From a bacterium (lineage in GTDB: Bacteria > UBA8248 > JACPRG01 > G963555815): DNA of 64,000 bases. The stretch covers positions 1,280,001 to 1,344,000 of the forward strand of contig CBDHDG010000007.1 of assembly GCA_965261595.1 (NCBI GenBank), read 5' to 3'. Shown here one piece after another: positions 18,348 to 35,313 of this stretch (positions are counted from its first letter, which is position 1; each line of letters starts with the position of its first letter). Under the pieces are notes generated by a model, which ran no database searches, had not been told where the DNA came from, and worked only from the letters and a program-made list of their open reading frames with translations. Made by a program: the position numbers and the translations under genes.

Positions 18348-19277
18348 CTACTTGGCCTCCCGCTTCCGCAACGCGGCGATTTGTTTTCGCAACGCGGCGA
18401 TCTCCGCGCTCATCGTGTCGTTGCGATTTTCCAGCTTTCCGATTTCTCGCTTGGCGTCGTCCAGGGCGGCGGCGGCCTTCGTGGCGGCAGCGGCGCGTGC
18501 GCCGAGCTCGGCGGTTTTCGCGCTCAACGCCTCTCCGACGGCCGCGTTGTTTTTGCGCAGCCCGGCGATCGTTTCATTCAGCCCCGCGATGGTTGAACCG
18601 AGCGCGGTCTTTTCCGACCGCAGCTCGGCGGCTTCCCGGTTGACCTTGGCCAGTCCCGTTCGGGACATCGCCAGGGAGTTGTCGGAGCTCCGCAAGAAGG
18701 TCTGAAGCAACTCCACGATTGATTTCTGTGCGGACTCGCGTTCGGCGGCATGACGGTTCGCTTTCGCCAGCTCCGACTCGCGGATTTTCAGCCAGGAGGA
18801 TGTTTTCTTCATCTCGGCGCCGGACTCGGAGAGCTTGGCTCCGGCCTCGGAGAGCTCTTTCCGGCTGGCTTCCAGGGCTCCGGCCAGGCTGCGGTTCTCG
18901 GTCTCACGCGAGTCCAGACGCTCCCGGAGGGTTTTCAGCTGATCTCCGCCGGTTTTCAGTTCATCGCCCCGCGTTTTCAGCAGGGCCTCCCGCGTTTCGA
19001 GCTGTCCCTTCCATTGCGAAAGCTGAGTCGTTTGCTCCTTGATTCGGCTCGCCTGTTTGAGGAGCCGATCCGCCTGGGCCTTCAGTTTTCCTCTCAGGGT
19101 TATCAGCGCGTCCGCCTGCCCTTTTGATTTGGCGGCCTCCGTATTCAGCTTCGCCTCCAAACCCGACACCTGCTTCTCGTAATCGCCCGAGCGTGACGCG
19201 GACCGGGATCCGACAACCGCCAAGGAAATCGCCAGGACTCCGGCCACCGCCCAAGCGACTTTGACGTGTGCACTCAC
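18348..19277 (-). CDS. Membrane-anchored long coiled-coil protein
   Basis: N-terminal hydrophobic helix, then an L/E/K/A heptad-rich region. Confidence 0.7.
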   Translation of the reverse strand: MSAHVKVAWAVAGVLAISLAVVGSRSASRSGDYEKQVSGLEAKLNTEAAKSKGQADALITLRGKLKAQADRLLKQASRIKEQTTQLSQWKGQLETREALLKTRGDELKTGGDQLKTLRERLDSRETENRSLAGALEASRKELSEAGAKLSESGAEMKKTSSWLKIRESELAKANRHAAERESAQKSIVELLQTFLRSSDNSLAMSRTGLAKVNREAAELRSEKTALGSTIAGLNETIAGLRKNNAAVGEALSAKTAELGARAAAATKAAAALDDAKREIGKLENRNDTMSAEIAALRKQIAALRKREAK

Positions 19278-20263: not shown

Positions 20264-20484
20264 AACGTGGTTAAAATATCTCACCTCGCCAATGGTGCGA
20301 CCGAGAACGCTGTGCTGAGATAAAGTGCTGTAAACATTGAATTTATTTTTCATTATCCCGTCTCTTGCTCCTTGCATTCCCGCCACGCTTGTGCTCAAAT
20401 ACGCACCGATTTGATGCAGCGTGTGTTCTATTTGATTACGGAATTGCATACCGAATCACCATAGAACAAAGGCAAGGAGCGACC

Positions 20485-21669
20485 ATGCCCAGAAGGAGCG
20501 AGCTCAGGATCACCAAACGCACCGTGGATGCACTCACCGTCGATGCCAAGGATGGCGTCTTCTGGGACCGGGACCTGGCGGGCTTCGGGGTGCGGGTCCA
20601 TGCCACGGGCCGCAAGGTCTACGTAGTGCAGTCCCGGGGGCCGGCCGGACCGAAGCGAGTGACCCTCGGACGGCATGGGGACATGTCGACCGAGGAGGCG
20701 AGGAAGCGGGCGGCCGTGGTCATCGACCGCATCAAGCGGGGGGAGGACCCCGTGCCCGCGCCGCCCGAGCCGGAGCTCACGTTGGCCGAACTGTCCGAAC
20801 GGTTCCTGCGCACCCATGTCAAGGTGCATTGCAAGCCGAGCACCGTTGCAACGTACCGGTGCGTGCTCGACAAGCACATTCTTCCCACCCTGGGCGCGAT
20901 GTCAATCAACGAGGTAGGACGAAGGGAGATTTCCGCGCTGCATCACCGGCTTCGTGACACGCCTGCAATGGCCAACCGGACGGTCAAGGTTCTGTCGAGA
21001 ATGTTCTCGTTGGCGGAAGCCTGGGAAAGACTGCCGCCCGGCCGGAACCCGTGCCGGTCGGTGCGCCGCTACAAGGAGAGGTCGTGCGAGCGGTTTCTGA
21101 CGCCGGAGGAGTTCCGGCGGCTGGGCCGTGTGTTGAGGGACGCGGAAACGGACGGCTCGGTGTGGCCGCCGGCGATTGCGGCGCTCCGGCTGCTGCTGCT
21201 GACCGGATGCCGGAAGAGCGAGATCCTGACGTTGCGCTGGGACGACGTGGACCGCACGGCGGGCGAGTTGAGGCTCAGGGACGCCAAGTCGGGTCCGCGC
21301 ATGGCGCCCCTAACCGGGCACGTGCTGAGAGTGCTTAACGGCATTCCCCGTATCGAAGGCACTCCCTGGGTGCTTGTCGGACAAAGGCCGGGGACCGGTC
21401 TGACGAACCTCGACCACTACTGGCAACTCATCCGGGCGCAGGCCGGCTTGGATGACGTCCGGATTCACGACATCCGGCACAGCTATGCATCGAGGGCCCT
21501 GGCGCTGGGCGAGAGCCTGCCCACGATCGGCAAGCTGCTCGGTCACAGTCAAGTATCAACGACAGCACGTTATGCGCACTTGATGCGGGATGCGGAGAAG
21601 GAAGCCGCGACCCGGGTGGGCGACAGCATCGGCGCCCACATCGGGCCGCGGAGCACCGAGGCGGCATGA
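20485..21669 (+). CDS. Tyrosine integrase with N-terminal arm-binding domain (copy 1)
   Basis: WDRDLAGFGVRV...GRKVY; TGCRKSE, DAK, HDIRH, LLGH, TARY. Confidence 0.95.
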   Translation: MPRRSELRITKRTVDALTVDAKDGVFWDRDLAGFGVRVHATGRKVYVVQSRGPAGPKRVTLGRHGDMSTEEARKRAAVVIDRIKRGEDPVPAPPEPELTLAELSERFLRTHVKVHCKPSTVATYRCVLDKHILPTLGAMSINEVGRREISALHHRLRDTPAMANRTVKVLSRMFSLAEAWERLPPGRNPCRSVRRYKERSCERFLTPEEFRRLGRVLRDAETDGSVWPPAIAALRLLLLTGCRKSEILTLRWDDVDRTAGELRLRDAKSGPRMAPLTGHVLRVLNGIPRIEGTPWVLVGQRPGTGLTNLDHYWQLIRAQAGLDDVRIHDIRHSYASRALALGESLPTIGKLLGHSQVSTTARYAHLMRDAEKEAATRVGDSIGAHIGPRSTEAA

Positions 21670-22883
21670 GGCTGGATGACATGGCGAAGCTGGAATACAA
21701 GACGCTCTCGAACCGCACGGTCGAGAAACTGAAGGTAGAAAAAGACACGGTGTTCTGGGATCACGAGCTCACCGGCTTCGGGATGCGGGTCTATCCCGCG
21801 GGCGGCAAGGTCTATGTCGCCCAGGCCCGGGGACCGGGGGGACCGAAGCGGGTCACGGTGGGCCGGCACGGGGTGCTCGGCGCGGAGCAGGCACGTCAGC
21901 GGGCGGCCCTGATCATCGCCCGGGTCAAGGCCGGCGAGGAGCCGGTGCCCGAGCCCATGGCGGTGAAGCTGTCCGGTGGGCCGACAGTGGGCCAGCTTGC
22001 GAGGCGGTTTCTCGAAGAGCACGTGGCGGTGCGCTACAAGCCGAGCACCATGAAGTCGACCCGCACGGTGGTGAATCGTCATATCGTGCCCGCCCTCGGT
22101 CAGCTACCGCTGGAGGCGGTCAGCCGCGCACGGGTCATGGAGCTGCATGACGAACTCTACGAGACCCCTGCGATGGCGAACATGGTGGTCCGCACCCTGT
22201 CGCTGATGTACAGGCTGGCCGAGAGCTGGGGGCTCGTTCCGGAGGGATGCAACCCCTGCCGGCTGGCGGTCAGGTTTCCCGAGCGCAAGCGGGAAAGGTT
22301 TCTGACCGATGGAGAGTTCACCCGCCTGGGAAAGGTACTGGATGAGGTTGAGACCCGGGGCGGCGCGTCGGCATCCGCGGTGATCGCTCTCCGTCTGCTT
22401 ATGCTGACCGGATGCCGGAAGAACGAGATCCTGACCCTTCGGTGGGAGGACGTGACGCTGGATCAGAACGAATTGAGACTGCCCGACGCCAAGACGGGCG
22501 CACGGGTGGTTCCATTGTCGCCCTCGGCGGTGAGGCTTCTTTCCGGTCTGCCGCGAGAACCGGGCAACCCGTGTGTCATTCCCGGGCGGAAGCCGGGCAC
22601 GCATATGAGCAACGTGGATCAGGCCTGGCAGGTCATCCGGGCGAGGGCTGGCCTGGAGGACGTCCGGATCCATGACCTGCGTCACAGCTTTGCGTCCAGG
22701 GCCCTGGCGCTGGGGGAGAGCTTGCCGATGATCGGAAAGCTGTTAGGCCACAGCCAGGTCGAGACCACGGCGCGCTATGCCCATCTGGCGCGGGATTCGG
22801 TGCAGGAGGCCGCAGCCCGTATCGCCGACAGTATCGCGACCGACATTCTGGGCGAAGGCTGGAGGCCGGCTTCCGGTTCATGA
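21666..22883 (+). CDS. Tyrosine integrase with N-terminal arm-binding domain (copy 2); start 21666 or 21681
   Basis: WDHELTGFGMRV; TGCRKNE, DAK, HDLRH, LLGH, TARY. Confidence 0.95.
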   Translation: MRLDDMAKLEYKTLSNRTVEKLKVEKDTVFWDHELTGFGMRVYPAGGKVYVAQARGPGGPKRVTVGRHGVLGAEQARQRAALIIARVKAGEEPVPEPMAVKLSGGPTVGQLARRFLEEHVAVRYKPSTMKSTRTVVNRHIVPALGQLPLEAVSRARVMELHDELYETPAMANMVVRTLSLMYRLAESWGLVPEGCNPCRLAVRFPERKRERFLTDGEFTRLGKVLDEVETRGGASASAVIALRLLMLTGCRKNEILTLRWEDVTLDQNELRLPDAKTGARVVPLSPSAVRLLSGLPREPGNPCVIPGRKPGTHMSNVDQAWQVIRARAGLEDVRIHDLRHSFASRALALGESLPMIGKLLGHSQVETTARYAHLARDSVQEAAARIADSIATDILGEGWRPASGS

Positions 22884-23067: not shown

Positions 23068-23731
23068 ATCGCTCCCGGGACCCTGATTCCGACATCCCCG
23101 CACCGCGGCCCGTCGCACGGCTCCATTCACGCAAAACGATCCGCTCGAGCTCCTCCACGCTCCGAACTCCTCAGACCGTCCTCACGACGGCCCTCGTCCC
23201 GATCGGCTTGGCGTACCCAGTTGCGAATCGCCGAAGCGGAGCACTCAAATTCGCGAGCCAGCTCCCCGGGCGTGCGCCCCGCGCGGACCCGCTCGACCAT
23301 CTGGCGCCGTTACGCCGGCGCGTAAGGGGAATGAGTCTTTGTCATCTGAACACGTCCTGCGCACAGTACGAAAGTGTCCACCGAAATGGGTCAAGTCCAA
23401 TCGCTCCCGGGATCCTGATTCCGACATCCCCGCACCGCGGCCCGTCGTACGGCTCCATTCACGCAAAACGATCCGCCCGAGCTCCTCCACGCTCCGAACT
23501 CCTTAGACCGTCCTCACGACGGCCTTCGTCCCGATCCGCGTGACGCACCCAGTTGCGAATCGCCGAAGCGGAACACTCGAACTCCCGGGCCAGCTCCCCG
23601 GGCGTACGGCCCGAGCGAACCAGCTCAACCATCTGGCGCCGGTATTCCGGCGCGTAGGGTGAATGAGTTTTCGGCATCTGAACACCTCCTCCGTACAGTC
23701 TGAAGGTGTCCACAAAAACGGGTCAATTCCA
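23068..23731 (-). repeat. Tandem 2 x 332-bp unit, each an IS3 left end/orfA fragment plus ~90 bp of non-IS sequence
   Basis: Units start ATCGCTCCCGGGA at 23068 and 23400. The IS part matches the left end of the IS at 42579. Confidence 0.85.
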
Positions 23732-23754
23732 TTCACTAGATTTCATATCTGACT

Positions 23755-24094
23755 CTCAACGACATCGAGCATCGCAGGACGAAGGTGGCCAGCCTCAGAG
23801 GAACGGGTTCGTGGAGCGGCTGCACAGAACCCTGCTCGACGAGCACTTCTGGATCATGGGAAGGAAGAAGTTCTACGAAAGCATCGGAGAGATGCAGAAC
23901 GACTTGACGCCTAACTGATCACCTAAAACACCGAACGCCCCATCAGGGCCACGGTATGCAGTGAAGGACACCCACCGAGGTCTTCGTCCGCTGCCTGCCA
24001 AAATCCAAGAGATCGAAGGAGGAAAATGGAAAAAAACGCCTGAACTGATCGCGAACAGGAACTGCAACTGTCACGCAAATACCCTATCTGTACA
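23755..24094 (+). mobile_element. IS481-family 3' remnant
   Basis: PQRNGFVERLHRTLLDEHF...KFYESI; ends ...ATCTGTACA. Confidence 0.75.
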
Positions 24095-24161: not shown

Positions 24162-26921
24162 CTAATTCTTCTTCTGTTTTCGCTTTTTGGTTTGCCTTCG
24201 ACGCTTCCGGAGATGTTTTGGATCCTGTAGATTCCGCAGCCTCGCCTCTAACTGTTCTTGCACCCGTTTCTCTCGTGTTCTCCATGCTTTCTCTTTCTCC
24301 GACTCCAGCTTCTTTACCTGCTCTTCCGCTTCACCGGCACGGCGCATGGCCAAAGCTTCCCGTCGCTCCGACTGCCTCGCCCGATGCCACCCCATCTGCG
24401 CAGAAAAGAACGGTTTATCAAGATCCGGAGTTTGTTCAAAGATCTCATCTACATTCCTGGCAAAAGTATCCTCTAGATCCGCAACATAGTTATTCCGCTC
24501 CATTTGGAACGACGTCTTGGCCGCGTTAATACTAGGACCAAAGAAATGTTCATAACGTTTTTTGTCAATAAAGGAGATTCCAGCATAAAAGTATTCATGA
24601 AGCATACACTGTTGCAACAAGTCAGCGCTAATCTGCTTAGGCGACAAAGCAGACAGATATCTGTATATCGCCTCAGGAGACCAAGTCGTGACGGTCTGTT
24701 CCTGCGACACTCGCTCAATGATACGGCTTTGTGAAATAAAGTAAAATTGCTCGGCATTCTCAAGACCATCCACGGAATACTTTCTGGACCTTAAGTTACG
24801 TAAGAGGACCAATATCTCAGCTTCAGACTCGACTTGAAGTGGGGAGCGATATGTTCCACTTTTCTCCCGTGCCTTCTGAACCTCCGTTTTATAATATTCA
24901 ATATCTCCCAAATCAGCCTGATCAAAGCCAGTAAGTTCTGAAATCCTGACTACCTGCACACCTTTTTTGGTAATGTTATCTTCGAAAGCAACCCGATCGA
25001 TATCTCCCGAAGGAAAGAGCAACTTAACATAGTCACTAAATGTACCAATGTCCCCGTCTGCACTAAGCCTTATATATCCGTCCAAAAATAGATTCTGCTT
25101 GTAGCTTCCTCTCACCGTAGCGGCGCGCAAGAAGTCGAGAGAATCGGTGGGATATCTCTCTACGAAACGTAAAGCCCATTTAAAGTGGTCCCAAGCCTCT
25201 CGAAGTAAGTTCGATGTTGTACAGAGTAACGCCTCTTCATGAGCAAAGGAGCTAAAGAGGTCAACAGCATAGTCGTGATTGTGGCACGCCGTAGCGACAA
25301 GAGGAAGTATTATGCTAGAGTCACAGAGCCACAGTGTCTTCCGAAATATATCTCTTCTCACCTCTCCGCACTTTGGGTCTAGTCCAAGTAGATGATAAAG
25401 GAAGTAGCCCTGAGAAACGGATGCAAGATAATTCCTTTGCGGTGGATTTGGTTCAACAATAAACTGATATACCGCTTCAACAAATGCGGATTGAAGCCTC
25501 AGGTCCTCGATTTTGACGGCTTTGTCCGAGACGTATCCAAACACGTCCGATAGCTCGTCTGGACGTGCCGTTTGCCCCGAATAAATGTTGTTGGCGATCA
25601 CCAACCCACGTTTGGAGAAGTTCTCTACTAAAACCTCTTCCGCGAATCTCTGACACTCAGCGATCTGCGATTCGTCTACCTCCTTATAAAAACCTTTTAG
25701 TGTAAGCTGGAACTGGCCGTAGGCTTGATCCTTCTCCGACTCTCTGATCGCATGATATTCCTGAACCTTCTCACGTCCGGCCTCGGTAATATGGATTTGA
25801 TCCGCAGTGGCCTTCAGCAAACCCTGGGCCCGGAGACTTTTTATTGTCTCTTCGATCGCCTCACCATATTGCGTCGGTGGTTCCGTGATATTTTCCAATA
25901 CAAAAGAGGACGATATCGCGTCTAAAGCCAACCGGCCCGAATCAACCGCGTTCAACTGCGACAATATTAACGGTGAGAGGTAGTCTCCAGGCTGGACACC
26001 TTGTAGTCGTCTATAAAGAGAAAGTGCAATAGCAGCCTCGACTTCCTTGTCCGATGTTACCTTTCTTGCGCGACTCTCTACTCGACGATCTCTGGACACA
26101 ATAAAGTGGTCCATCGTCCTTAACATTTGAATTAGTTTTGAGTGACGTCCATCAGAGTTAGAATATTGGACGAGTACAATGTTGTACTGCTCTAATAGTT
26201 CCTTCTCATCTGCTTCTGTGAAATCTGCAGCGATCAGATAAATTGGGTGGCAAGGATCGCCAGAACGTTTTGCCATATTCAATATTGTATCAATGTCAGG
26301 ATCAGACAAACTGTGGCCTACTATGAGTACATCGAACATGGCGAATATACTGCAAAGTCGATCGCGAAAATACCCTGCCGAACCGTCCGTCTGAAGTCGT
26401 TTGTAATCGGCTGAGGTAAGGATAACCTCTTCTGGATGGTCCAAGTCGGAATGAAGCTTCTGGATTATGTGGCTGACTCCATCTCGCCATAAGATGAAAT
26501 CCTGAGGACGATTCCTAATAACCTCGAAATGTTCATTTAAATTGGAGAGATATTCATTGATCTCGTTATCGTAATTAGTGGTAAGATAACATGCGAAAGG
26601 CCACTTGCTGAGTAGATCGTAAAGATAGCCGTGTGTCTTATTCGGAGGAATTAGCAGCGGTTTGAGGAAAGTTATAAGGGCGTTACGGTCGTCTCCAAGA
26701 TCACGCTCCACTTGACGAAAGAACTGGGGATACTCTTTTTTGTGGAGGTATTTCTCGTATGACTGGAAGTCGGAGACGATATCTAGCGCTGTAAGATTCT
26801 CATATGCTAGTTTGGCCAAATTGCCCCATGATGGATAACCTACCTCGCACGATGGGCCAGATCCAACAAGGACTAGGCATCTTCCGTTATTGATTTTCCG
26901 TATGAGCTGCTTATCAAACAT
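24162..26921 (-). CDS. SIR2-like domain protein with central winged helix and degenerate PIN-like domain
   Basis: VLVGSGPS..GYPSW, TTNYD, KLHS, VGHSLSDPDI; AT-richer than the flanks. Confidence 0.85.
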   Translation of the reverse strand: MFDKQLIRKINNGRCLVLVGSGPSCEVGYPSWGNLAKLAYENLTALDIVSDFQSYEKYLHKKEYPQFFRQVERDLGDDRNALITFLKPLLIPPNKTHGYLYDLLSKWPFACYLTTNYDNEINEYLSNLNEHFEVIRNRPQDFILWRDGVSHIIQKLHSDLDHPEEVILTSADYKRLQTDGSAGYFRDRLCSIFAMFDVLIVGHSLSDPDIDTILNMAKRSGDPCHPIYLIAADFTEADEKELLEQYNIVLVQYSNSDGRHSKLIQMLRTMDHFIVSRDRRVESRARKVTSDKEVEAAIALSLYRRLQGVQPGDYLSPLILSQLNAVDSGRLALDAISSSFVLENITEPPTQYGEAIEETIKSLRAQGLLKATADQIHITEAGREKVQEYHAIRESEKDQAYGQFQLTLKGFYKEVDESQIAECQRFAEEVLVENFSKRGLVIANNIYSGQTARPDELSDVFGYVSDKAVKIEDLRLQSAFVEAVYQFIVEPNPPQRNYLASVSQGYFLYHLLGLDPKCGEVRRDIFRKTLWLCDSSIILPLVATACHNHDYAVDLFSSFAHEEALLCTTSNLLREAWDHFKWALRFVERYPTDSLDFLRAATVRGSYKQNLFLDGYIRLSADGDIGTFSDYVKLLFPSGDIDRVAFEDNITKKGVQVVRISELTGFDQADLGDIEYYKTEVQKAREKSGTYRSPLQVESEAEILVLLRNLRSRKYSVDGLENAEQFYFISQSRIIERVSQEQTVTTWSPEAIYRYLSALSPKQISADLLQQCMLHEYFYAGISFIDKKRYEHFFGPSINAAKTSFQMERNNYVADLEDTFARNVDEIFEQTPDLDKPFFSAQMGWHRARQSERREALAMRRAGEAEEQVKKLESEKEKAWRTREKRVQEQLEARLRNLQDPKHLRKRRRQTKKRKQKKN

Positions 26922-26929
26922 TGCTCACC

Positions 26930-28187
26930 TGACTTGCCCCCACCAACGAGACCACCTGCTACGTTAGACTTGGGATCCTTTGAAGTCCACTCCGGGGGAC
27001 CGGCGCCAGGGCTTGGGATCTTGGGAATCTGGCCTTTGGCGCAGGCGGCCGGTAGGCCAAGACGCTGTGAGGCCGTCGCTGGTTGTACGCCCGCCTCCAC
27101 CTCTCCACCAGCACCTGGGCCTCTTTCAGAGTCTCGAAGCTCTCCACGCCCAGGAGCTCATCCCTCAGCTTCCCATTGAAACTCTCCACATTTCCATTCT
27201 CCCAGGGGCTGCCCGGCTCAATGGACAACGTCCTCACGCCAACCGCCTTGAGCCAGTCCCTGACCACCCTGGCCGTGAACTCCGATCCGTTATCTGACCG
27301 GAGGTATTCAGGGACGCCCCGGCCCACAAACAGCTCTGCCAACCGCTCCAGCACATCCTGGTGATTCATCTTCCTTTGGACATCAATGGATAAGCATTCA
27401 AAGGCTGTACTCATCCAAAATGGTCAGCAGCCGGAAAGCCCTCCCTGCTTGGGTGCGCTCATGCATGAAGTCATAGCTCCAGACATGGTTCCGATGAGTC
27501 GGTCTCAGGCGCACGCAGGACCCGTCATGGAGCCACAGTCTCCTTCGTTTCGGCTGTCTGGACGGGACCTTCAGCCCCTCCTGTCTCCAGAGCCTTTCCA
27601 CTCCCTTGGGGTTCACCTTCCACCCCTCTAAAGCAAAGCATCGACGTAATCCTCCGGTAGCCGTACGCGCTGGCCAACTCCACCATCCAGATCACCAGTT
27701 GTGCCTCTTCCTTGGGAATCTGTCGGACTCTTCGTTGGGTCGACCTAGCCTGTCCCAGCACTCGGCAGGCCCGACGCTCACAGACTCGCTCAGGTCCGAA
27801 TCGCTCTCTAACCCATACCAGGACTCGTCTCCTTTTCGCCGGGCCTGGAAGTTTCCCAAGGAGACTTCCCTCAGAATATGATTGTCCAGCGACAGGTCCG
27901 CCACCAGCTTCTTCAGCCGGGCATTCTCCTTCTCCAGGGACTTCAGACGCTTGGCCTGGTCCATCCTCAGACCCCCGTACGCCTTCCTCCACCGGTAGTC
28001 TGCTCGGTCACCCCGATCTGCTTACACACCTGGCCTACCGTCCTCCCTTGGAACTGGGGCACCTCCGCCTCGCGCAGCTTGATGACGAGCTGTTCCGCTG
28101 TAAACCGCTTCCTGGCCAGCCTTCCCCTCCTTCTCGATTCCAGGAATACTCTTTTATAAACTGGACTCGCTTGAAGGGGGCAGGTCA
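26930..28187 (-). mobile_element. Degenerate IS3-family element (multiple frameshifts, no TSD)
   Basis: Ends TGACTTGCCCCC and GGGGGCAGGTCA; fragments DQAKRLK, HVWSYDF, RSDNGSEF, PGSPWENG. Confidence 0.88.
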
Positions 28188-28492: not shown

Positions 28493-30161
28493 CCGGAATT
28501 TCCCATATCAACTTGCTTGGGTGGTTTCCGGTCCCCTTTCCCGATGAAAACCAGTTGATCCCCTTCCGATGGGTTTGTCAAGAGCCTTCCAACCCTCCGC
28601 AACAAGGTGCTGACGGCCATCGACTGCCCCAAAAGGCGGACCCTCGCCCTTCGGTCCCCTTTGTTCGCGGTTCAACCCGTTAACCAATCACCTCATGCTG
28701 CCGGGAACCCTCTGTACAAGGTTAGACCGGCACCGGCCGTAATCGGTTGATTCGGTCCAGGATGATGGCGAACTCTTCCCTGGACACCGCTACTTCGGCC
28801 AATTGAAAGATGATCTACCGGGCGTGCCGCACAATCCTCCCGCCCATTTTGATGAGCTTGACCTGGAGGCTTCGCAGCGACCAGTGCTTGAGCCCCCTGG
28901 GCAAGGCTAGCCTGCGCAGGAAATTGCCCAGGTTGTACGCCAGGACGAAGAGAAGGAGCCGCACCTGGTTGCACACGAACCGGTGACAGGAAAGGCGTGT
29001 CCAGTTCAGGGCGTACTTGCCTTCCTTGATCCATTGCTCGGCTGTGCCTCGCTGGTTGTAGAAGTGCACGACCCCCTCGGGTCGAGCCGTCAGGTTCGTG
29101 ACAATGAATCCGACGCGAGGGAAGAGTTCGCCTGAGTGCCATTCCACCTTCGCCACGACCCGCCGGGAACGGTCCCAGCTTCCAGCCTGATACCGGAAGT
29201 CGTAATAGAAGATGATGGGTCTCTTGGGCGGGCGACCGACCGGGCGGGTGAGGAGGAAGTCGATCTCTCGCTGCACCACGTCGTTGGCGGGAAGGCGGAT
29301 GGCGTAAAGGAAGCTGTGCGCTTCCAGGCACTCATAGACCTCCGGGCGCGCAAAGGCGGCATCGGCTCGGAAGTAACGGCGAACACCCGCCCGCTCATAC
29401 CGGGCCGCGATGGGCGAAAGCAACTCGCGCCAGCCATCGGCGCTGTGCACGTTGCCGGGGCGCAACATCGCCCCTTCGCAGTCCCCAAACTGGTTAAAGC
29501 AAAAAAGAGGGTGATAACAGGTGCAACGAAAGTGGCCGTTGTAGGCCGTACCTTCCTGCTCCCCATGGACGGGGCTTTCCGAGCTGTCCATGTCCAGGAT
29601 GATTCGCTGATGGGGTGAGTGTGCCATGGCCCGGTCCACCCACTCCCGGTTTAGCTCGCTCAACCCCTTGAGATTCTCCTCCCTGGTGAGAACCTCGGTC
29701 TCGAACCGGCTCAGGGTGTTGGCGCCCGCCGCCTGCTTCTCAAGCGCTCGGCGGTCAACTACGGCTTGCATAGCAGGGTCCTGGGCCAACCGCGCTCGGC
29801 ATCGTTGGTGTCTTCATACCCTGCCAAGCGGCTATAGACCGACTGGCGCAATAGCGGCGCCAACTCATGCTGGATGTTCCGGCCATGACGGATCTCTTGC
29901 AATTGCACTGGCGCTCTCACCGTCAAACCCAGCGCATCATCCAGCTCCCGGCAGGCCAGCAATCCCGCATCCGAAGTGATTCTGGTTCCGTGAAACTCAA
30001 GCCTGAGCCGACGGTCAAAACGGATCTTCAAAGCCCCCTTCTTCGCTTCACCCATTGGGTCCCCTCGCAAGATGATGGCAGGGGGAGGCCAACACCTTGA
30101 TCTTACACGAGAAAACGGCATTCGGTCCGACAAAACTTATGATCCATATGGGAAATGCGGG
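28493..30161 (-). mobile_element. IS1380-family element; transposase pseudogene 28722..30055 (frameshift ~29790, stop 28815)
   Basis: IRs CCGGAATTTCCCATAT and ATATGGGAAATGCGGG; ITSDAGLL, LDMDSS, RADAAF, YNQRGTAEQWIKE. Confidence 0.9.
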
Positions 30162-30466: not shown

Positions 30467-31675
30467 CTAACGATTCGGCTCATCTCCTGGATCGCGTTCT
30501 CCATCCAACGGTGTGCGCGTTACGGCAAGCTCTCTCGACCATGATCCTAAATTCGCCTTCGTCAACTGCGTCTTGTCCAGGTTTCGTCCAACAGCCTCCT
30601 GCTCGCTAAGCATATCTACTATGTTTATCGCGTCTGAGCCTGGGACGCCGCCCTCTGGACAGAATGGTAGTGCCACAAACTCTCCCATCTGGTGGAAAAC
30701 CATAACAAAGATCCATTCTTCCTTGTCAGTGGGAAACGGCCCGCCAACAGTACCTGCAAGAACAGTACCTGCAAGAGAAACTCTCGACTCGTCCGTTGCT
30801 TCTCCTACAGTGCCCGCGATCGAGGAGGAACTATTAAATCTCCTTGATACCCAACCGACCAAACAGCCGGACGGGATATTGGCTTCCGGTGCGTTTATTA
30901 CCAACTTATCGATTGGCTCTTCGGCTCCGCTCGTTAGGAAAACAACCTTGTCGTCCCACATGGGAACGATCCAAAATGGAAGATCGTCGGTGCGACACAT
31001 GAATACAACGGGTCTGTCGATTTTTCTATATTCTTCGGATTCAAGACGCATCGTTCCGACGAATCCGCCCCTTAGTATCTTTTCCCCAGGATTCATAATT
31101 TGTTGCCGTACAGGTTGAAGGCCAATGTTCTCAGCGAATTTGAATCCATTCTCACCCAACAGAGAAAATACCATCAGATAAGCGGACTTGATCATGCTGA
31201 CGAATTCGTAGTCGTCTCGTTGCGGAATCCTGAAGTTCATCCCTTTGCTTGCATCCAGGCCATGCTTGGGAGGCAGTGGACCTAACTCAATGGTGCCATT
31301 CCGAAACAAATGCTTGCGAGCCGGGAAGGGCGCGCTTGGATCGTGCGGAATGAATCGTCGCGATCTCTTGTGGCCAAACAAATCAACTACGATGGGAGCT
31401 CCTTTACCCTCCGCCCATTCATTTCTGGCTTTCATGGATAGATATGCGTGCTGGTCGACAAGACTCGCCTTGTTGTTGCATGACTTACATGTCAAGCAGA
31501 TTACGGCCCCGCCAAGAGACTTCGGCGGCGCATGTTCCAACGTCACATTTGTACCCGCCAGCACATCGGACCTGTCAAAGTCAGAAAGACATATGGGACA
31601 TCTGGTATTCCCGGCATTAAACAGCCGTTGACGTAATCGCCGCTCTCGTCCGCGTCCATGGCTCGTTCTTGCCAT
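30467..31675 (-). CDS. HNH endonuclease with uncharacterised C-terminal region
   Basis: CPIC...TLEHAPPKSLGG...CKSCNN; GAGGAG RBS; perfect 15-bp tandem duplication at 30746-30775. Confidence 0.8.
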   Translation of the reverse strand: MARTSHGRGRERRLRQRLFNAGNTRCPICLSDFDRSDVLAGTNVTLEHAPPKSLGGAVICLTCKSCNNKASLVDQHAYLSMKARNEWAEGKGAPIVVDLFGHKRSRRFIPHDPSAPFPARKHLFRNGTIELGPLPPKHGLDASKGMNFRIPQRDDYEFVSMIKSAYLMVFSLLGENGFKFAENIGLQPVRQQIMNPGEKILRGGFVGTMRLESEEYRKIDRPVVFMCRTDDLPFWIVPMWDDKVVFLTSGAEEPIDKLVINAPEANIPSGCLVGWVSRRFNSSSSIAGTVGEATDESRVSLAGTVLAGTVGGPFPTDKEEWIFVMVFHQMGEFVALPFCPEGGVPGSDAINIVDMLSEQEAVGRNLDKTQLTKANLGSWSRELAVTRTPLDGERDPGDEPNR

Positions 31676-31945
31676 CGTCGAAGGTGCTCCTCGACCGCTT
31701 AGGGTTCTTAACCCGGATATCGCCAGGACGGGTGCAGCCATGGGCTTCGTCTACGTCGCCCAGCCCTTGCCATACGGCCTGATTCTGACGTCCATTCCAT
31801 CGCGCTCATGCGGCCATATATACGTCGCCGTTCCCGACTTCTCCATCCCAATGGCCGCTCATGGGTTGTCCCCTGGCAAATCCGGGCTCACCCCATGGTA
31901 TATCGCAAATCACGACAGTTGGCTTTGTTTTGTTACATTTCATGG

Positions 31946-32010: not shown

Positions 32011-32880
32011 ATGGACAAGACCATGCCTTTCCCCACCCGATCGCTGTCGGCCCAGGAAAGCCGCGTCGTCCTCAGCATGGCAGAGCACGGCAGCAAGGAA
32101 ATAGAGCGCGGGGAGATCATCGACATGCTCGGCGTCAGCCCGCAAGCCGCCGACCACGTGATCCGCTCGCTGCGCCGGAAGGGATGGCTGGAGCGCGCCA
32201 GTTGGGGCCGCTACCTCCTCATTCCTCCCGAAATGGGCCCTGACGCTCTCGGAGAAAGCAACGTCCTGGCGCTCGCCAGCCGGATCGCCGAACCCTACTA
32301 CTTCGGCTACGGGACGGCCGCGATGCACCACGGCCTCACAACGCAGCACCGCCAGGTCATTCGACTGGTCACGCCGATGCGCGCGCGCAACCGCCGCGTG
32401 CTCGATACCGAGGTCCGCATCGTCAATCCGGTCCCAGGAAAGTTCTTCGGATTCGGCCCGGTCGACGTCCTGGGCTACACCGTCATAATGTCCGACCGCG
32501 AAAAGACCGCCATCGACTGCATCGACCGTCCTGACCTCGCCGGCGGTGAAGGAGAAGCGGCGACCGTCCTGGCGACGGCCTGCCGCCGCATCGACTGGCA
32601 CAAGGCAGCCGGCTATCTGGGGCGCATGTCCTCCAAGACGCTCACGCGACGCTTCGGATGGCTGGCAGAGCGTGCCGGCGCCACCATCCCCGAAGACGTG
32701 CGCACGCATCTCCAAGACCTTGCGAAGGGTAGCGGCCGAGCATATTTCGGCCCGAGAACCCCCAAGTCCAGCGCAATCGGCTATCAGGAGAGTTGGCAGC
32801 TCACCGCCAACGTCGCCAGCCACGAATTGACCGACAGCGCCGGAATCGCGCGGCCGCGATCGGTCGACCGGGAGCGCTGA
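32011..32880 (+). CDS. abiEi: Type IV TA antitoxin AbiEi (wHTH plus C-terminal domain)
   Basis: LRRKGWLERASWGRY, YFGYGTAAMHHGLT, KFFGF, SDREKTAID. Confidence 0.88.
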   Translation: MDKTMPFPTRSLSAQESRVVLSMAEHGSKEIERGEIIDMLGVSPQAADHVIRSLRRKGWLERASWGRYLLIPPEMGPDALGESNVLALASRIAEPYYFGYGTAAMHHGLTTQHRQVIRLVTPMRARNRRVLDTEVRIVNPVPGKFFGFGPVDVLGYTVIMSDREKTAIDCIDRPDLAGGEGEAATVLATACRRIDWHKAAGYLGRMSSKTLTRRFGWLAERAGATIPEDVRTHLQDLAKGSGRAYFGPRTPKSSAIGYQESWQLTANVASHELTDSAGIARPRSVDRER

Positions 32881-33671
32881 GCCATTCTCACCCGTCCCCA
32901 GGTCCAGCGCTACTCCGCCGAAGCCGGACTGCGCGACATCATGATCGCCGAAAACGAGATCGTGCTCACCTACTTGCTCCAGCTGATGGCGGAGCGCGGC
33001 ATCCTGGACAAGCTCGCCTTCAAGGGCGGAACCTGCCTTCGCAAGATGTTCATCGGCAGCGGGGGGCGCTTCTCAACCGATCTGGATTTCACGCGGGTCG
33101 AAGAACACGACCACGAAGACGTGATCCTCGCCATGATGGAGGCATTCGAGCAGCCGTTTCACGGGATCCGGTTCGGCGTACCCGATGACAGTTACTACGA
33201 AACCCAGGACGGCCTGTCTTGGGGCGTCAATCCGGTCTACGCCCACGACTGGAACCCGGGCGGGCAAAGCCAGATCCGGCTCCAGGTGAGCCGCCGCGAG
33301 GTCCCCACCCTTCCCCCGTCGCGGAACGCTCAATGCGCGCAAAGCTACTTCCGGCACCTGCCTTTCGATCCGGTGGACATCACGTGCCTGGCCCTGCCCG
33401 AGATCATCGCCGAGAAGGTCCGGGCCTGCTACCAGCGCAGCAAAGCACGCGACATCTACGATCTCAGCGTCTTTGCGACCCGCCCCCTTGACCGACCGCT
33501 CATCCGCCGGCTCGTCGTGCTCAAGCTCTGGCAGGCGGGCGACGCGTTCGATCCGGAAGCCCTCATGGCGAAATTCGACGATGCCACCGCATTCGATTGG
33601 GAAGATCTCCGGCAGCTGGTTCGCCGAACACAGCCCATCGAGCCTGCCCGGATCACTGCCGCCTGCCTGAA

Positions 33672-35313
33672 CCCGCATTCCCCAAGTGACCGATCCATCT
33701 GATGCGGTTTCCGTCTGATTCCTGTATAAGAATCAGTGGATTAGATCAGACGGAGGGTGAGTCGAATGCGGAACCTGGAGGGTGAGTCGGATCGGGGGCT
33801 TCTGCGGGCGTTTTTCGACCGAAGACTGAAGTTCGAGTTCCACGGTTCGCGGATCACGTCAGACGCTGGTCTGCACGCCTATCGTGAACTGGACGAAGCC
33901 CTCGGCCTGACCACGCTGGCCGGTGACGTTATTGCTGACAGCCGGACCGGCAAGAACGGTTGGCACGGCATCATCGGTCTCCTTCGCCAATCCGTCTATG
34001 GTCGTCTCGCCGGGTACGAGGACGTGAACGACGCCGACCGGCTGGGGCGCGATCCTGCGATGCGGTGGATCGTCGGCGGCAGGGCTGTCGAGCGCGGCGG
34101 CGCATCGACCAGCCAGATGGGCCGGTTCGAGACGGAGTTACTCGCCACCAATGACAACCTCGCCGCGCTCGCTGACCTTTTGGGCATCTGGATCGACCAG
34201 GTTAACGAGCGCAAGCCGCCGAAGATTATCGTGCTCGACATGGACAGCTCCGTCAGCCCGACCTACGGTGACCAGGAGGGCACGGCCTACAACGGTCACT
34301 TCGGCTGCACGTGCTATCACCCGCTGTTCGTGTTCAACCAGTTCGGCGATCTGGAGCGTTGCGCCCTGCGTCCGGGCAACGTGCACAGCGCCCATGAATG
34401 GCGCGATGTGTTGGACCCGGTGGTCGCTCGATACCGGAACAAGACACTCCGGCGTTATTTCCGTGGTGACGCCGCCTTCGCCTCGCCCGAGGTTTATGAG
34501 TTTCTGGAAGCGGAAGGCTTCAAGTACGCCATCCGGCTTCCGGCCAACAAGGTGCTGCACGACAGCATCGCGCACCTGCTCAAGCGCCCCGTCGGTCGGC
34601 CGCCGAAGGAAGTTCGTCGGTATTACGCGAACTTCAGCTATCGGGCCGGTAGCTGGACGGAGCCCCGCCGGGTCGTCGCCAAGGTAGAGTGGCACTCAGG
34701 GGAACTGTATCCCCGCGTCGGCTTCATCGTCACCAACCTGAGCCGTCCTGCCGAGCGGGTTGTTGCGTTCTACAATCAGCGCGGCACTGCCGAGCAATGG
34801 ATCAAGGAAGGCAAGAACGCCATCAAGTGGACGCGGCTGTCATGCCGTTCGTTACGCAACAATGCCGTCCGGCTCCAGCTGCATGCACTCGCCTATAACC
34901 TCGGCAACTTCATGCGTACCCTGGCGTTGCCCGATGCCGTGGAGCAATGGTCGCTGACGACGCTGAGGGAGAAGCTGGTCAAGATCGGTGCGAAAGTTGT
35001 CAGCCATGGCCGGTACGTCACATTTCAATTGGCCGAGGTTGCAGTCCCAAGAAGCTTGTTCCAGAAAATCTTGAGCCTGATTGATGATCTACGACGAAGT
35101 CCCGCTCCGGCGTAGGCCGAGGGAATCGACGGCAAGGAGATTGCGACACGAGAGGTGTGTCTGGATGGCAAGAGAAACGACCAAATGGCCTTCCACGCGC
35201 TGGCCGATTACCAAAATCATGTCATCGGATGGCTGCAATGGGAACAGAGTGCCCTTGGAGATGGGGCCGTGGTACGATTTCCGCGAATTTGGATGTCATC
35301 TGGGGAATGTCGG
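33672..35313 (+). mobile_element. IS1380-family element with 5-bp TSD CTGAA
   Basis: IRs CCCGCATTCCCCA and TGGGGAATGTCGG; CTGAA at 33667-33671 and 35314-35318. Confidence 0.93.
33757..35115 (+). CDS. IS1380-family transposase, intact ORF
   Basis: ITSDAGL, GYEDVND, LDMDSS, RGDAAF, YNQRGTAEQWIKE. Confidence 0.95.
   Translation: MSRMRNLEGESDRGLLRAFFDRRLKFEFHGSRITSDAGLHAYRELDEALGLTTLAGDVIADSRTGKNGWHGIIGLLRQSVYGRLAGYEDVNDADRLGRDPAMRWIVGGRAVERGGASTSQMGRFETELLATNDNLAALADLLGIWIDQVNERKPPKIIVLDMDSSVSPTYGDQEGTAYNGHFGCTCYHPLFVFNQFGDLERCALRPGNVHSAHEWRDVLDPVVARYRNKTLRRYFRGDAAFASPEVYEFLEAEGFKYAIRLPANKVLHDSIAHLLKRPVGRPPKEVRRYYANFSYRAGSWTEPRRVVAKVEWHSGELYPRVGFIVTNLSRPAERVVAFYNQRGTAEQWIKEGKNAIKWTRLSCRSLRNNAVRLQLHALAYNLGNFMRTLALPDAVEQWSLTTLREKLVKIGAKVVSHGRYVTFQLAEVAVPRSLFQKILSLIDDLRRSPAPA

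Follow-up and report, generated by a model that had tools for sequence, protein, structure and literature searches.

Bacterial immunity repeatedly makes use of SIR2-type NAD+ hydrolases (NADases) for killing, and the sensors known to control them are SLOG, a tail-tube binder, Argonaute, HerA and STAND. Three described proteins come closest to the one reported here. ThsA (PDB 6lhx, 7uxt, 8bto) is a SIR2-SLOG NADase, DSR2 (PDB 8wye and others) is a single-gene NADase of ~1000 amino acids (aa) whose C-terminus is a helical repeat binding the phage tail tube protein, and KomC of Kongming (PDB 8zsf) is a SIR2-only protein of 264 aa with partner proteins. In this study we analyzed a window, that is, the whole stretch of 64,000 nucleotides (nt) from contig CBDHDG010000007.1 of assembly GCA_965261595.1. 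A single intact open reading frame (ORF) with an ATG start at 24162..26921 of its minus strand encodes a 919-aa protein, P0001, and the genome holds one copy of this gene. An earlier note, made from the sequence alone, had proposed it as a stand-alone single-gene defence candidate composed of a SIR2 domain, a winged helix-turn-helix (wHTH), a degenerate PIN domain and a coiled coil with a basic tail. Profiles and a structure model recovered this architecture, with a PIN fold and a long helix carrying the basic tail, but the PIN site is apparently live and part of the family is embedded in BREX type 3 and DUF499-centred (Hma) operons. The protein is probably a self-contained abortive-infection effector of a conserved, horizontally mobile family, with a back-up role in BREX type 3 and Hma operons when embedded there.

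Domain architecture and comparison with known SIR2 systems

The protein is divided as follows.

24162..26921, minus strand: whole ORF, SIR2-wHTH-PIN protein P0001, 919 aa and stop codon
26082..26921, minus strand: ThsA/KomC-type SIR2 domain (predicted NADase type), aa 1-280, with GSGPS loop, N116 and H157
25764..25976, minus strand: PadR-like winged helix-turn-helix, aa 316-386, from hhalign against PadR, PADLOC WH_III-A, Pfam and the model
25353..25763, minus strand: helical region, aa 387-523, with a long hairpin (380-447) and then a bundle in the model
24630..25352, minus strand: PIN-fold domain as accepted from the model, aa 524-764, with a helical insertion of about 60 residues (about 590-652) and D534, E575, N610, E700 and S730
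24426..24629, minus strand: helical segment, aa 765-832, with conserved CMLxEY, FIDxxRY and PDLEKPFF motifs and generic helical structure matches only
24165..24425, minus strand: long charged helix with Lys/Arg tail, aa 833-919 (helices 833-899 and 901-918 in the model)

Pfam SIR2_2 (PF13289) was matched at aa 111-249 with an E-value (E) of 1.3e-18 and 67.9 bits against a curated cut-off of 24.5, and it was found in all 54 family members scanned. The TTNYD and KLHSD motifs of the window protein align with the same motifs of ThsA. Residue counts over 98 diverse family sequences, down to 21% identity, show N116 kept in 97 and H157 in all 98, in agreement with the catalytic Asn and His read in the earlier note; we take them to be the equivalents of ThsA N112 and H152 (ThsA numbering). 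The profile of these 98 sequences matched PDB chains of ThsA (E 3e-38 to 2e-31), KomC (1e-28) and DSR2 (3e-25, aa 11-280 only). PADLOC returned only models of the SIR2 part for the window protein (ThsA, E 2.8e-20, aa 3-238; LmuA; PDC-S25) together with WH_III-A; the sole row past residue 394 (HEC-06, aa 821-857, E 0.013) is weak and at the level of chance. A search of the window protein against NCBIfam gave no useful match. Judged by its motifs and profile matches, the SIR2 domain is ThsA/KomC-like and a predicted NADase.

The full-length AlphaFold model has a mean predicted local distance difference test (pLDDT) of 89.7 and a predicted TM-score (pTM) of 0.85, and a model of aa 488-850 reached 88.3 and 0.86. 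The full model has only the SIR2 domain in common with solved structures. ThsA provides the closest SIR2 domain by profile and PADLOC, shares the N-terminal TTNYD and KxHxD motifs, and likewise holds sensor and NADase in a single chain. The window family differs from it in having no SLOG/STALD domain, its C-terminus being composed of the wHTH, the PIN fold and the long helix; no SLOG/STALD or Macro match was obtained from Pfam in 53 members at E<=0.2. Foldseek aligned ThsA with the SIR2 part only (TMq 0.23-0.25), no ThsB lies near the window copy, and a TIR neighbour was found in 2 of 95 family loci. DSR2 resembles the window protein in size, in its N-terminal SIR2 domain and in its large C-terminal part, and gave the best Foldseek E for the full model (1.2e-10), but the sequence match is limited to aa 11-280 and full-length superposition fails (TMq 0.24, root-mean-square deviation (rmsd) about 36 A). 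The best superposition of the SIR2 part was obtained with KomC (TMt 0.76, rmsd 4.1 over 284 columns), whereas in the window protein 640 further residues are fused to it. As it lacks SLOG, ThsB and a C-terminus of the DSR2 type, the protein belongs with neither ThsA nor DSR2. The earlier note had proposed a candidate new system, and no full-length match to a described system was obtained with PADLOC, the PDB profile search, or Foldseek against ThsA, DSR2, KomC and other solved systems. No paper describing a SIR2-wHTH-PIN protein was found in the literature searched. The 'sole-Sir2' protein, as presented in the portion of the preprint consulted (bioRxiv 10.1101/2024.12.27.630466), has ~440 aa and a different layout, and was rejected as the same protein.

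For the wHTH, a PadR profile of 77 columns was built from seven genome hits, and hhalign aligned family aa 319-386 with its positions 1-76 at a probability of 91.6%, P of 8.3e-7 and a score of 32.0. The best of 100 column shuffles scored 12.2, so that none reached this score, and other parts of the protein scored 8-14. PADLOC WH_III-A was found at aa 332-394 (E 5e-4), and weak Pfam wHTH matches fell at the same site (HTH_45 in 9 of 54 members, other winged-helix families in single members). The model shows helices and a two-strand wing there (helix 353-365, strands 369-371 and 375-378), and the wing-like element of the earlier note is confirmed. The helical region that follows (aa 387-523) had no match in Pfam or in the PDB profile search. 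At the other end of the protein, the proposed coiled coil appears as one long helix in the model, and its basic tail is general, the last 25 aa holding 12-15 Lys/Arg in all 62 intact proteins.

The PIN-fold domain and its conserved site

The first half of this domain was matched by sequence. In hhalign, aa 522-600 matched a VapC profile of 29 sequences with a score of 27.9 and P of 6.3e-5, and in this alignment D534 coincides with the first Asp of PIN domains and E575 with their Glu; none of 100 shuffles scored above 14.9, and the reversed sequence scored 10.4. A second run with the alignment of aa 515-765 gave a score of 26.9 and P of 0.0016. Pfam PIN_12, PIN_3 or PIN appeared in 5 of 53 relatives, always below the cut-off (E 0.011-0.13), on the homologous strand and from profile position 2-4 onward; no Pfam PIN match was found on the window protein at E<=1. 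Against PIN_12 the hhalign match was weak (E 0.013-0.067), full-length PIN_12 proteins gave no match past the N-terminal half, and a PDB profile search with the profile of the PIN region returned chance-level matches only (E 0.45-1.2).

In the model, the domain opens with a strand (529-533), two helices (535-542 and 549-561), a second strand (565-569) and a helix (570-589). The insertion consists of four short helices between 595 and 652. The rest is composed of a strand (656-658), helices 669-688 and 694-711, a strand (725-729), a helix (734-738), a short strand (746-747) and a last helix (749-759). A structural search of 48,161 chains with this domain model was performed with VIA-align, for which Z of 7-8 is the stated common background. 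Nine chains reached Z>=8 (9.9, 9.4, 9.1, 8.9, 8.6, 8.6, 8.3, 8.1 and 8.0), with 129-149 residues aligned, nearly the whole of the targets. The best were 1y82 (Z 9.9, 146 of 147 residues aligned), VapC 5x3t (9.4, 135 of 137) and 1w8i (9.1), followed by VapC2, VapC15, VapC21 and VapC20. Among the best 25 rows, 12 are titled VapC/VapBC, PIN/PilT-N-terminus or protein-only RNase P, and most of the others are presumably PIN proteins as well.

Several results weigh against a PIN assignment and against the reading built on it. The C-terminal half of the domain gave no signal against VapC profiles (E 0.16-0.65). The VIA-align Z of 8-10 is only moderately above the background, and the best Foldseek rows, all PIN proteins at a probability of 0.97-0.99, have no significant E (best 0.099). 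The fourth and least conserved acidic position of canonical PIN domains is a Ser (732). We nevertheless accepted aa 524-764 as a PIN fold in the model, because Z is somewhat above background, whole targets are covered and the structure agrees with the sequence profile. The PIN-like strand-helix of the earlier note is in this way extended to a domain, resting on the VapC profile and the nine chains with Z>=8.

The earlier note had further taken the later acidic positions, in ESEAE and FISQS, to be replaced and the domain to be catalytically dead. The counts support neither claim. D534, E575 and N610 are invariant in the PIN region (98 of 98 each); position 700 of ESEAE is always acidic (92 Glu, 6 Asp), and position 730 of FISQS always carries Ser (90) or Thr (8). 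In the model, position 700 falls at the beginning of the helix after strand 3 and position 730 at the end of strand 4. Canonical PIN domains carry the third acidic residue and a Thr/Ser at those two places, and three acidic residues with a Ser/Thr are their usual signature. Positions 700 and 730 were assigned to the PIN motifs by co-linearity with the model strands and by the VapC alignment, rather than by a significant profile match. Only the fourth position departs, 732 being Ser in 81, Thr in 13 and Gly in 4 of the 98; position 736 is Asp in 58, Asn in 21 and Glu in 6, so that an Asp/Glu stands four residues past 732 in 64 of 98. As far as conservation can tell, the PIN site is apparently live, not degenerate. 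Since the acidic positions and the Ser/Thr are kept, a dead PIN acting as a sensor is no better founded than a PIN acting as a second effector.

Compared with VapC-type PIN toxins (PDB 5x3t, 3zvk, 4chg), the domain is alike over the whole length of the fold (Z 8-9.4, 129-141 residues), with the first Asp and the Glu aligned. It differs in having no antitoxin partner, in the helical insertion of about 60 residues after helix 2, in a Glu as third acidic residue with Ser at the fourth canonical position, and in staying below the cut-off of curated PIN models. The C-terminal part is in the PIN superfamily by fold and site, and by no curated sequence model. Mean-field direct coupling analysis of aa 505-775 (278 rows, Meff 219) was too noisy for strand pairings. 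The best ESM Atlas match (0.91), to a 628-aa cluster automatically named 'VapC family toxin', was kept as a lead only; the PIN-region query scored 0.79.

Size, conservation and distribution of the family

At least 229 relatives of the full protein were found, the best 120 of which share 51-70% identity with the window protein and mostly have 915-920 aa. With the C-terminal 639 residues alone, matches were obtained to 512 cluster representatives (clustering at 50% identity), and E was <=1e-30 for 221 of these. It had been suggested that the same C-terminal module should be sought on other effectors. No such fusion was found among the 150 best of the 512 representatives and 54 shorter proteins: SIR2_2 is present in 55 of 55 distant full-length representatives scanned, and all 54 shorter matches are fragments of the same family with no other domain. 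The module is fixed to SIR2 across the family.

Labels of the metagenome-assembled genomes (MAGs) that carry members include a Desulfobacterota-like symbiont, Nitrospirae, Treponema, Rhodothermales, Bacteroidetes, Verrucomicrobia, Planctomycetes, Acidobacteria and Chloroflexi. The spread over at least nine phyla is patchy and rare, with 50-60% identity between phyla. In the phylum of the window the gene was found in 1 of 51 genomes, that one being the window genome, and in one planctomycete order in 3 of 201. No full-length match was found among 50,697 phage and 72,556 plasmid records, and a scan of viral contigs found nothing.

Complete non-redundant copies are intact in 59 of 67 cases, which indicates purifying selection on the gene. 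Irrespective of context, 61 of the 62 intact proteins from the loci keep the key residues. Seven non-redundant copies (L009, L020, L024, L127, L128, L143 and L160) are split into two or three ORFs, either by decay or by MAG/metagenome assembly errors.

Genomic context of the family

A total of 95 loci were collected, the first 23 together with 72 analyzed from metagenomes (the best 80 of 159 relatives, kept as 79 loci). They form 81 groups at >=95% nucleotide identity, of which 71 are informative and 10 have too little flank. Neighbours were identified by PADLOC and Pfam, and the groups fall into the following classes.

BREX type 3 operon: 17 of 81 groups
DUF499-centred BREX-related (Hma) operon: 7 of 81 groups
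Other defence or mobile genes next door: 21 of 81 groups
Nothing recognised: 26 of 81 groups
Too little flank: 10 of 81 groups

The gene is therefore embedded in BREX type 3 or Hma operons in 24 of the 71 informative groups. The order in BREX type 3 is BrxC - PglXI - [gene] - BrxH - PglZ - BrxA, with a 1-nt gap after the pglXI stop in most loci and with brxH starting at the stop of the gene. Most Hma operons have the order HmaA - [gene] - HmaB - HmaC, and in 6 of the 7 Hma groups the gene either separates the helicase and methylase genes or adjoins them. In four loci, PADLOC identified BrxC, PglXI, BrxHI, PglZ and BrxA at E of 0 to 1e-105 and HmaA at 1.5e-188, as well as HmaB and HmaC. Other defence or mobile neighbours include type I and type IIG restriction systems, BrxL, BrxA/B, ThsB/TIR, AbiE, an OLD-like ATPase, Cas1, integrases, Tn3 and relaxases. 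No partner gene is conserved across all loci, the first 23 sharing the SIR2 gene alone. Several of those 23 were located in BREX-like or DUF499/DUF1156 clusters.

Context labels cluster on a tree of 62 non-redundant proteins. The BREX type 3 label requires 4 changes and the Hma label also 4, where shuffled labels need 9.5 and 6.8 on average, with none of 500 shuffles as low in either case. L006 is the sister of the window protein (support 99), and both belong to a clade of 18 rows (support 99), nine of which are embedded in BREX type 3, the two basal ones among them. Key residues and tail do not tell embedded from solo copies, and length hardly does (914-948 aa in the BREX type 3, Hma and short-flank classes, 900-938 and 770-937 in the other two). 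The earlier description as stand-alone therefore fits the window copy, which has no BREX/Hma neighbours, but not the family, with its 24 operon-embedded groups.

That BREX and DUF499 systems harbour back-up effectors inside their operons is a published concept, as set out in the portion of PMC12839542 consulted. The classes named in its main text are HNH, HKD, PD-(D/E)XK, OLD/TOPRIM, HEPN, PIN and Schlafen. SIR2, sirtuin and NADase have 0 occurrences in that main text, and the supplementary tables may count the family under PIN. The present family is like these effectors in lying inside a core operon with core genes on both sides, and, as that text describes them, they are predicted to be suicidal with PIN endoRNases as a listed class. 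It differs in that the PIN is fused to SIR2 and wHTH and in that many copies are solo. In a Halomonas Hma locus, the HmaA-HmaB slot is occupied by Septu according to the part of PMC11232893 consulted.

Further genes share these operons. Schlafen-ATPase genes are co-embedded in six BREX type 3/Hma loci (L091, L094, L098, L131, L153, where they are upstream of pglXI, and L014) and Fic-domain genes in three (L093, L118, L150), which indicates that such operons stack several accessory effectors. ThsB/TIR genes adjoin two distant members from Pirellulales MAGs at 29-32% identity (L027:1137-2442 and L022:5415-5843); these may be a Thoeris-like offshoot in which the SIR2-wHTH-PIN protein replaces ThsA.

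The window copy as a lone gene in a mosaic island

The gene sits in a low-GC, strain-specific island flanked by insertion sequences (IS), with a GC content of 45-48% at the gene against about 60-68% on both sides. Its immediate boundaries are listed below.

26925..26930, minus strand: Shine-Dalgarno-like AGGTGA, 3 nt before the ATG, read from the sequence
26959..27414, minus strand: IS3-type transposase fragment (rve_3, Pfam E 3e-24), ending 37 nt upstream of the SIR2 gene
23459..23918: IS3-type fragments, an HTH_Tnp_1 ORF (minus strand) and an rve_3 fragment (plus strand), about 240 nt downstream of the SIR2 gene

A scan for promoters and terminators around the gene gave no signal exceeding shuffled expectation. 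The window aligns with a same-genus genome at 93% identity from 8000, and synteny ends at about 19.4 kb (about 19372). The SIR2 gene was not matched in any of 4 relatives. From about 19372 to at least 48 kb the relatives match solely multi-copy IS-like pieces, which indicates that the island is large and mosaic. An AbiEi/AbiEii pair lies 5 kb from the SIR2 gene; no conserved partner gene or ThsB was found beside it in the window.

No remnants of BREX or Hma operons were detected at 19-36 kb by tblastn with 8 neighbour families (best E 0.01), and no PglZ was found in the window genome. Two DUF499 (HmaC-like) genes are present on other contigs (C2:15575-26340 and C5:750827-764121), each with an SNF2-type helicase about 10 kb off, which suggests two BREX-related/Hma-type systems unlinked to the window. 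With no remnant nearby, no PglZ and the DUF499 loci on other contigs, the window gene is taken as a lone cargo gene.

Proposed function and alternative explanations

We favour the self-contained abortive-infection effector, with the back-up role in BREX type 3 and Hma operons when embedded, as the probable reading. The NADase would be kept off in the uninfected cell. Upon infection, the winged helix, the PIN site and the basic tail may interact with a cue, either a nucleic acid or a nucleoprotein, that derives from the phage or is induced by it, and the SIR2 domain would be switched on, probably by oligomerisation as in ThsA, KomC and DSR2. NAD+ would then be depleted, and the infected cell would no longer support the phage. 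Because the PIN site is strictly conserved, we propose that it is most likely a second effector that cleaves RNA or DNA, or otherwise the metal- and nucleic-acid-binding heart of the sensor. In BREX type 3 and Hma operons the protein may be a back-up effector that fires once a restriction-like first line fails. The window copy would come from the BREX-associated clade, carried as lone cargo into the IS-ridden island next to the AbiE system and acting alone. The single-gene defence candidate of the earlier note is retained in part: the absence of a partner in the window and a plausible defence association speak for it, whereas the 24 embedded groups and the place of the window copy in the BREX type 3 clade do not. 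On the other side stand the 26 of 71 informative groups with nothing recognised next door, and NADase, nuclease, phage protection and trigger are all things that we infer here. Moreover, should the protein need BREX/Hma partners, the copy in the window could be without activity.

A more specific role, which we consider possible but doubtful, is that of a guard with two enzymes, NADase and PIN nuclease, that watches BREX type 3 and DUF499/Hma systems. It would be kept silent by the adjacent methylase-helicase, or sense the state of this machinery or of its DNA substrate, and fire when a phage disables the first line. PrrC for a type I restriction system and PARIS for Ocr are analogues of such a guard. 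BREX would then gain an NAD+-depleting arm, and solo copies would be constitutively armed sensors of a phage nucleic-acid cue.

It is unlikely that the gene encodes an obligate accessory subunit of BREX type 3 or DUF499 (Hma) systems, for example a missing effector, with the window copy as a stranded and functionless remnant. The embedding of 24 of the 71 informative groups, for the most part at one fixed junction of methylase and helicase genes where gaps are close to zero, the clustering of the BREX type 3 label on the tree, the nesting of the window copy in that clade and the lack of PglZ in its genome would all be expected of such a subunit. However, solo copies are equally long, conserved at key residues and mostly intact. 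A PglXI-type methylase was found in 14 of 401 sampled Bacteroidota genomes and the SIR2 gene lies behind it in the seed genome only, so that 1 of 14 carries the gene; BREX type 3 therefore does not need it, and the gene is not a core BREX part. Moreover, the gene resides in two host systems with opposite gene order and Septu fills the same Hma slot, which indicates the behaviour of an independent passenger.

A toxin in which the PIN nuclease is the main killer and SIR2 a regulator or sensor, through NAD+-dependent modification or an NAD-derived signal, also has a low probability. The PIN site is conserved as strictly as the SIR2 site, and in the main text of PMC12839542 PIN endoRNases are among the BREX back-up effectors and SIR2 is unmentioned. 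However, the nearest matches of the SIR2 domain are ThsA, KomC and DSR2, whose PDB titles read NAD(+) hydrolase or NADase, and the domain keeps their catalytic Asn and His.

We find it improbable that the protein is not antiviral at all, being an addiction toxin that maintains a selfish element or a housekeeping NAD-dependent regulator of nucleic-acid metabolism. The 26 informative groups among housekeeping or unannotated genes would fit this, as would the travel with IS elements, integrases, relaxases and Tn3. The rare and patchy spread over at least nine phyla at 50-60% identity argues against it, as do the repeated embedding in defence operons and the lack of a conserved small antitoxin-like neighbour.

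A Thoeris-like effector whose C-terminal module senses the product of a TIR (ThsB-type) partner is very improbable, for despite the ThsA-like SIR2 domain and the TIR genes beside two distant members (two ThsB at L027, the only ThsB matches of that genome, and one at L022), such a neighbour occurs in just 2 of 95 loci and not in the window, and the C-terminal fold is PIN, not SLOG, with neither SLOG/STALD nor Macro in the 53 members at the threshold given above.

Under the favoured reading, that of a self-contained effector with a back-up role, the family brings to the SIR2 NADases a sensor or effector part not described in the literature searched, composed of the winged helix, an apparently live PIN site and the basic tail. 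It comprises at least 512 sequence clusters in many phyla, nearly all in uncultured organisms, and for this reason it may have been missed by screens in model bacteria. The killing step of BREX-type systems themselves is still debated, and the methylase-helicase insertion in BREX type 3 and DUF499/Hma operons would tie NAD+ depletion to them. For annotation, large 'SIR2 family protein' entries can conceal a second enzyme. Both corrections to the earlier note, the live-looking PIN site and the BREX/Hma embedding of the family, raise the interest of the finding and do not lower it.

Other features of the island

At the edge of the island, a 309-aa coiled-coil ORF (18348-19277) gave weak JetC/LmuB-like (SMC-type) PADLOC matches with E of 8e-6 to 4e-4, which are probably compositional. 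Tandem tyrosine-recombinase genes at 20365-22883 encode proteins of 434 and 405 aa; their repeats are about 73-86% similar and 1205 nt apart. A genome of the same family (G006) holds at least 6 copies of this pair at 83-89% identity, so that the pair behaves as a mobile element of its own. At 23068-23699, between these integrases and the IS3 fragment, lie two tandem copies of a direct repeat of 300 nt, 90% identical to each other.

Two inverted copies of an IS1380-type element (DDE_Tnp_1_4), one broken (28815-30133) and one intact (33757-35115), bracket the segment 28815-35115. A low-GC ORF of 424 aa with HNH_5-like character (30467-31741) and the AbiEi/AbiEii pair (32011-33702) lie between them, and the layout of the bracketed segment resembles that of a composite transposon.

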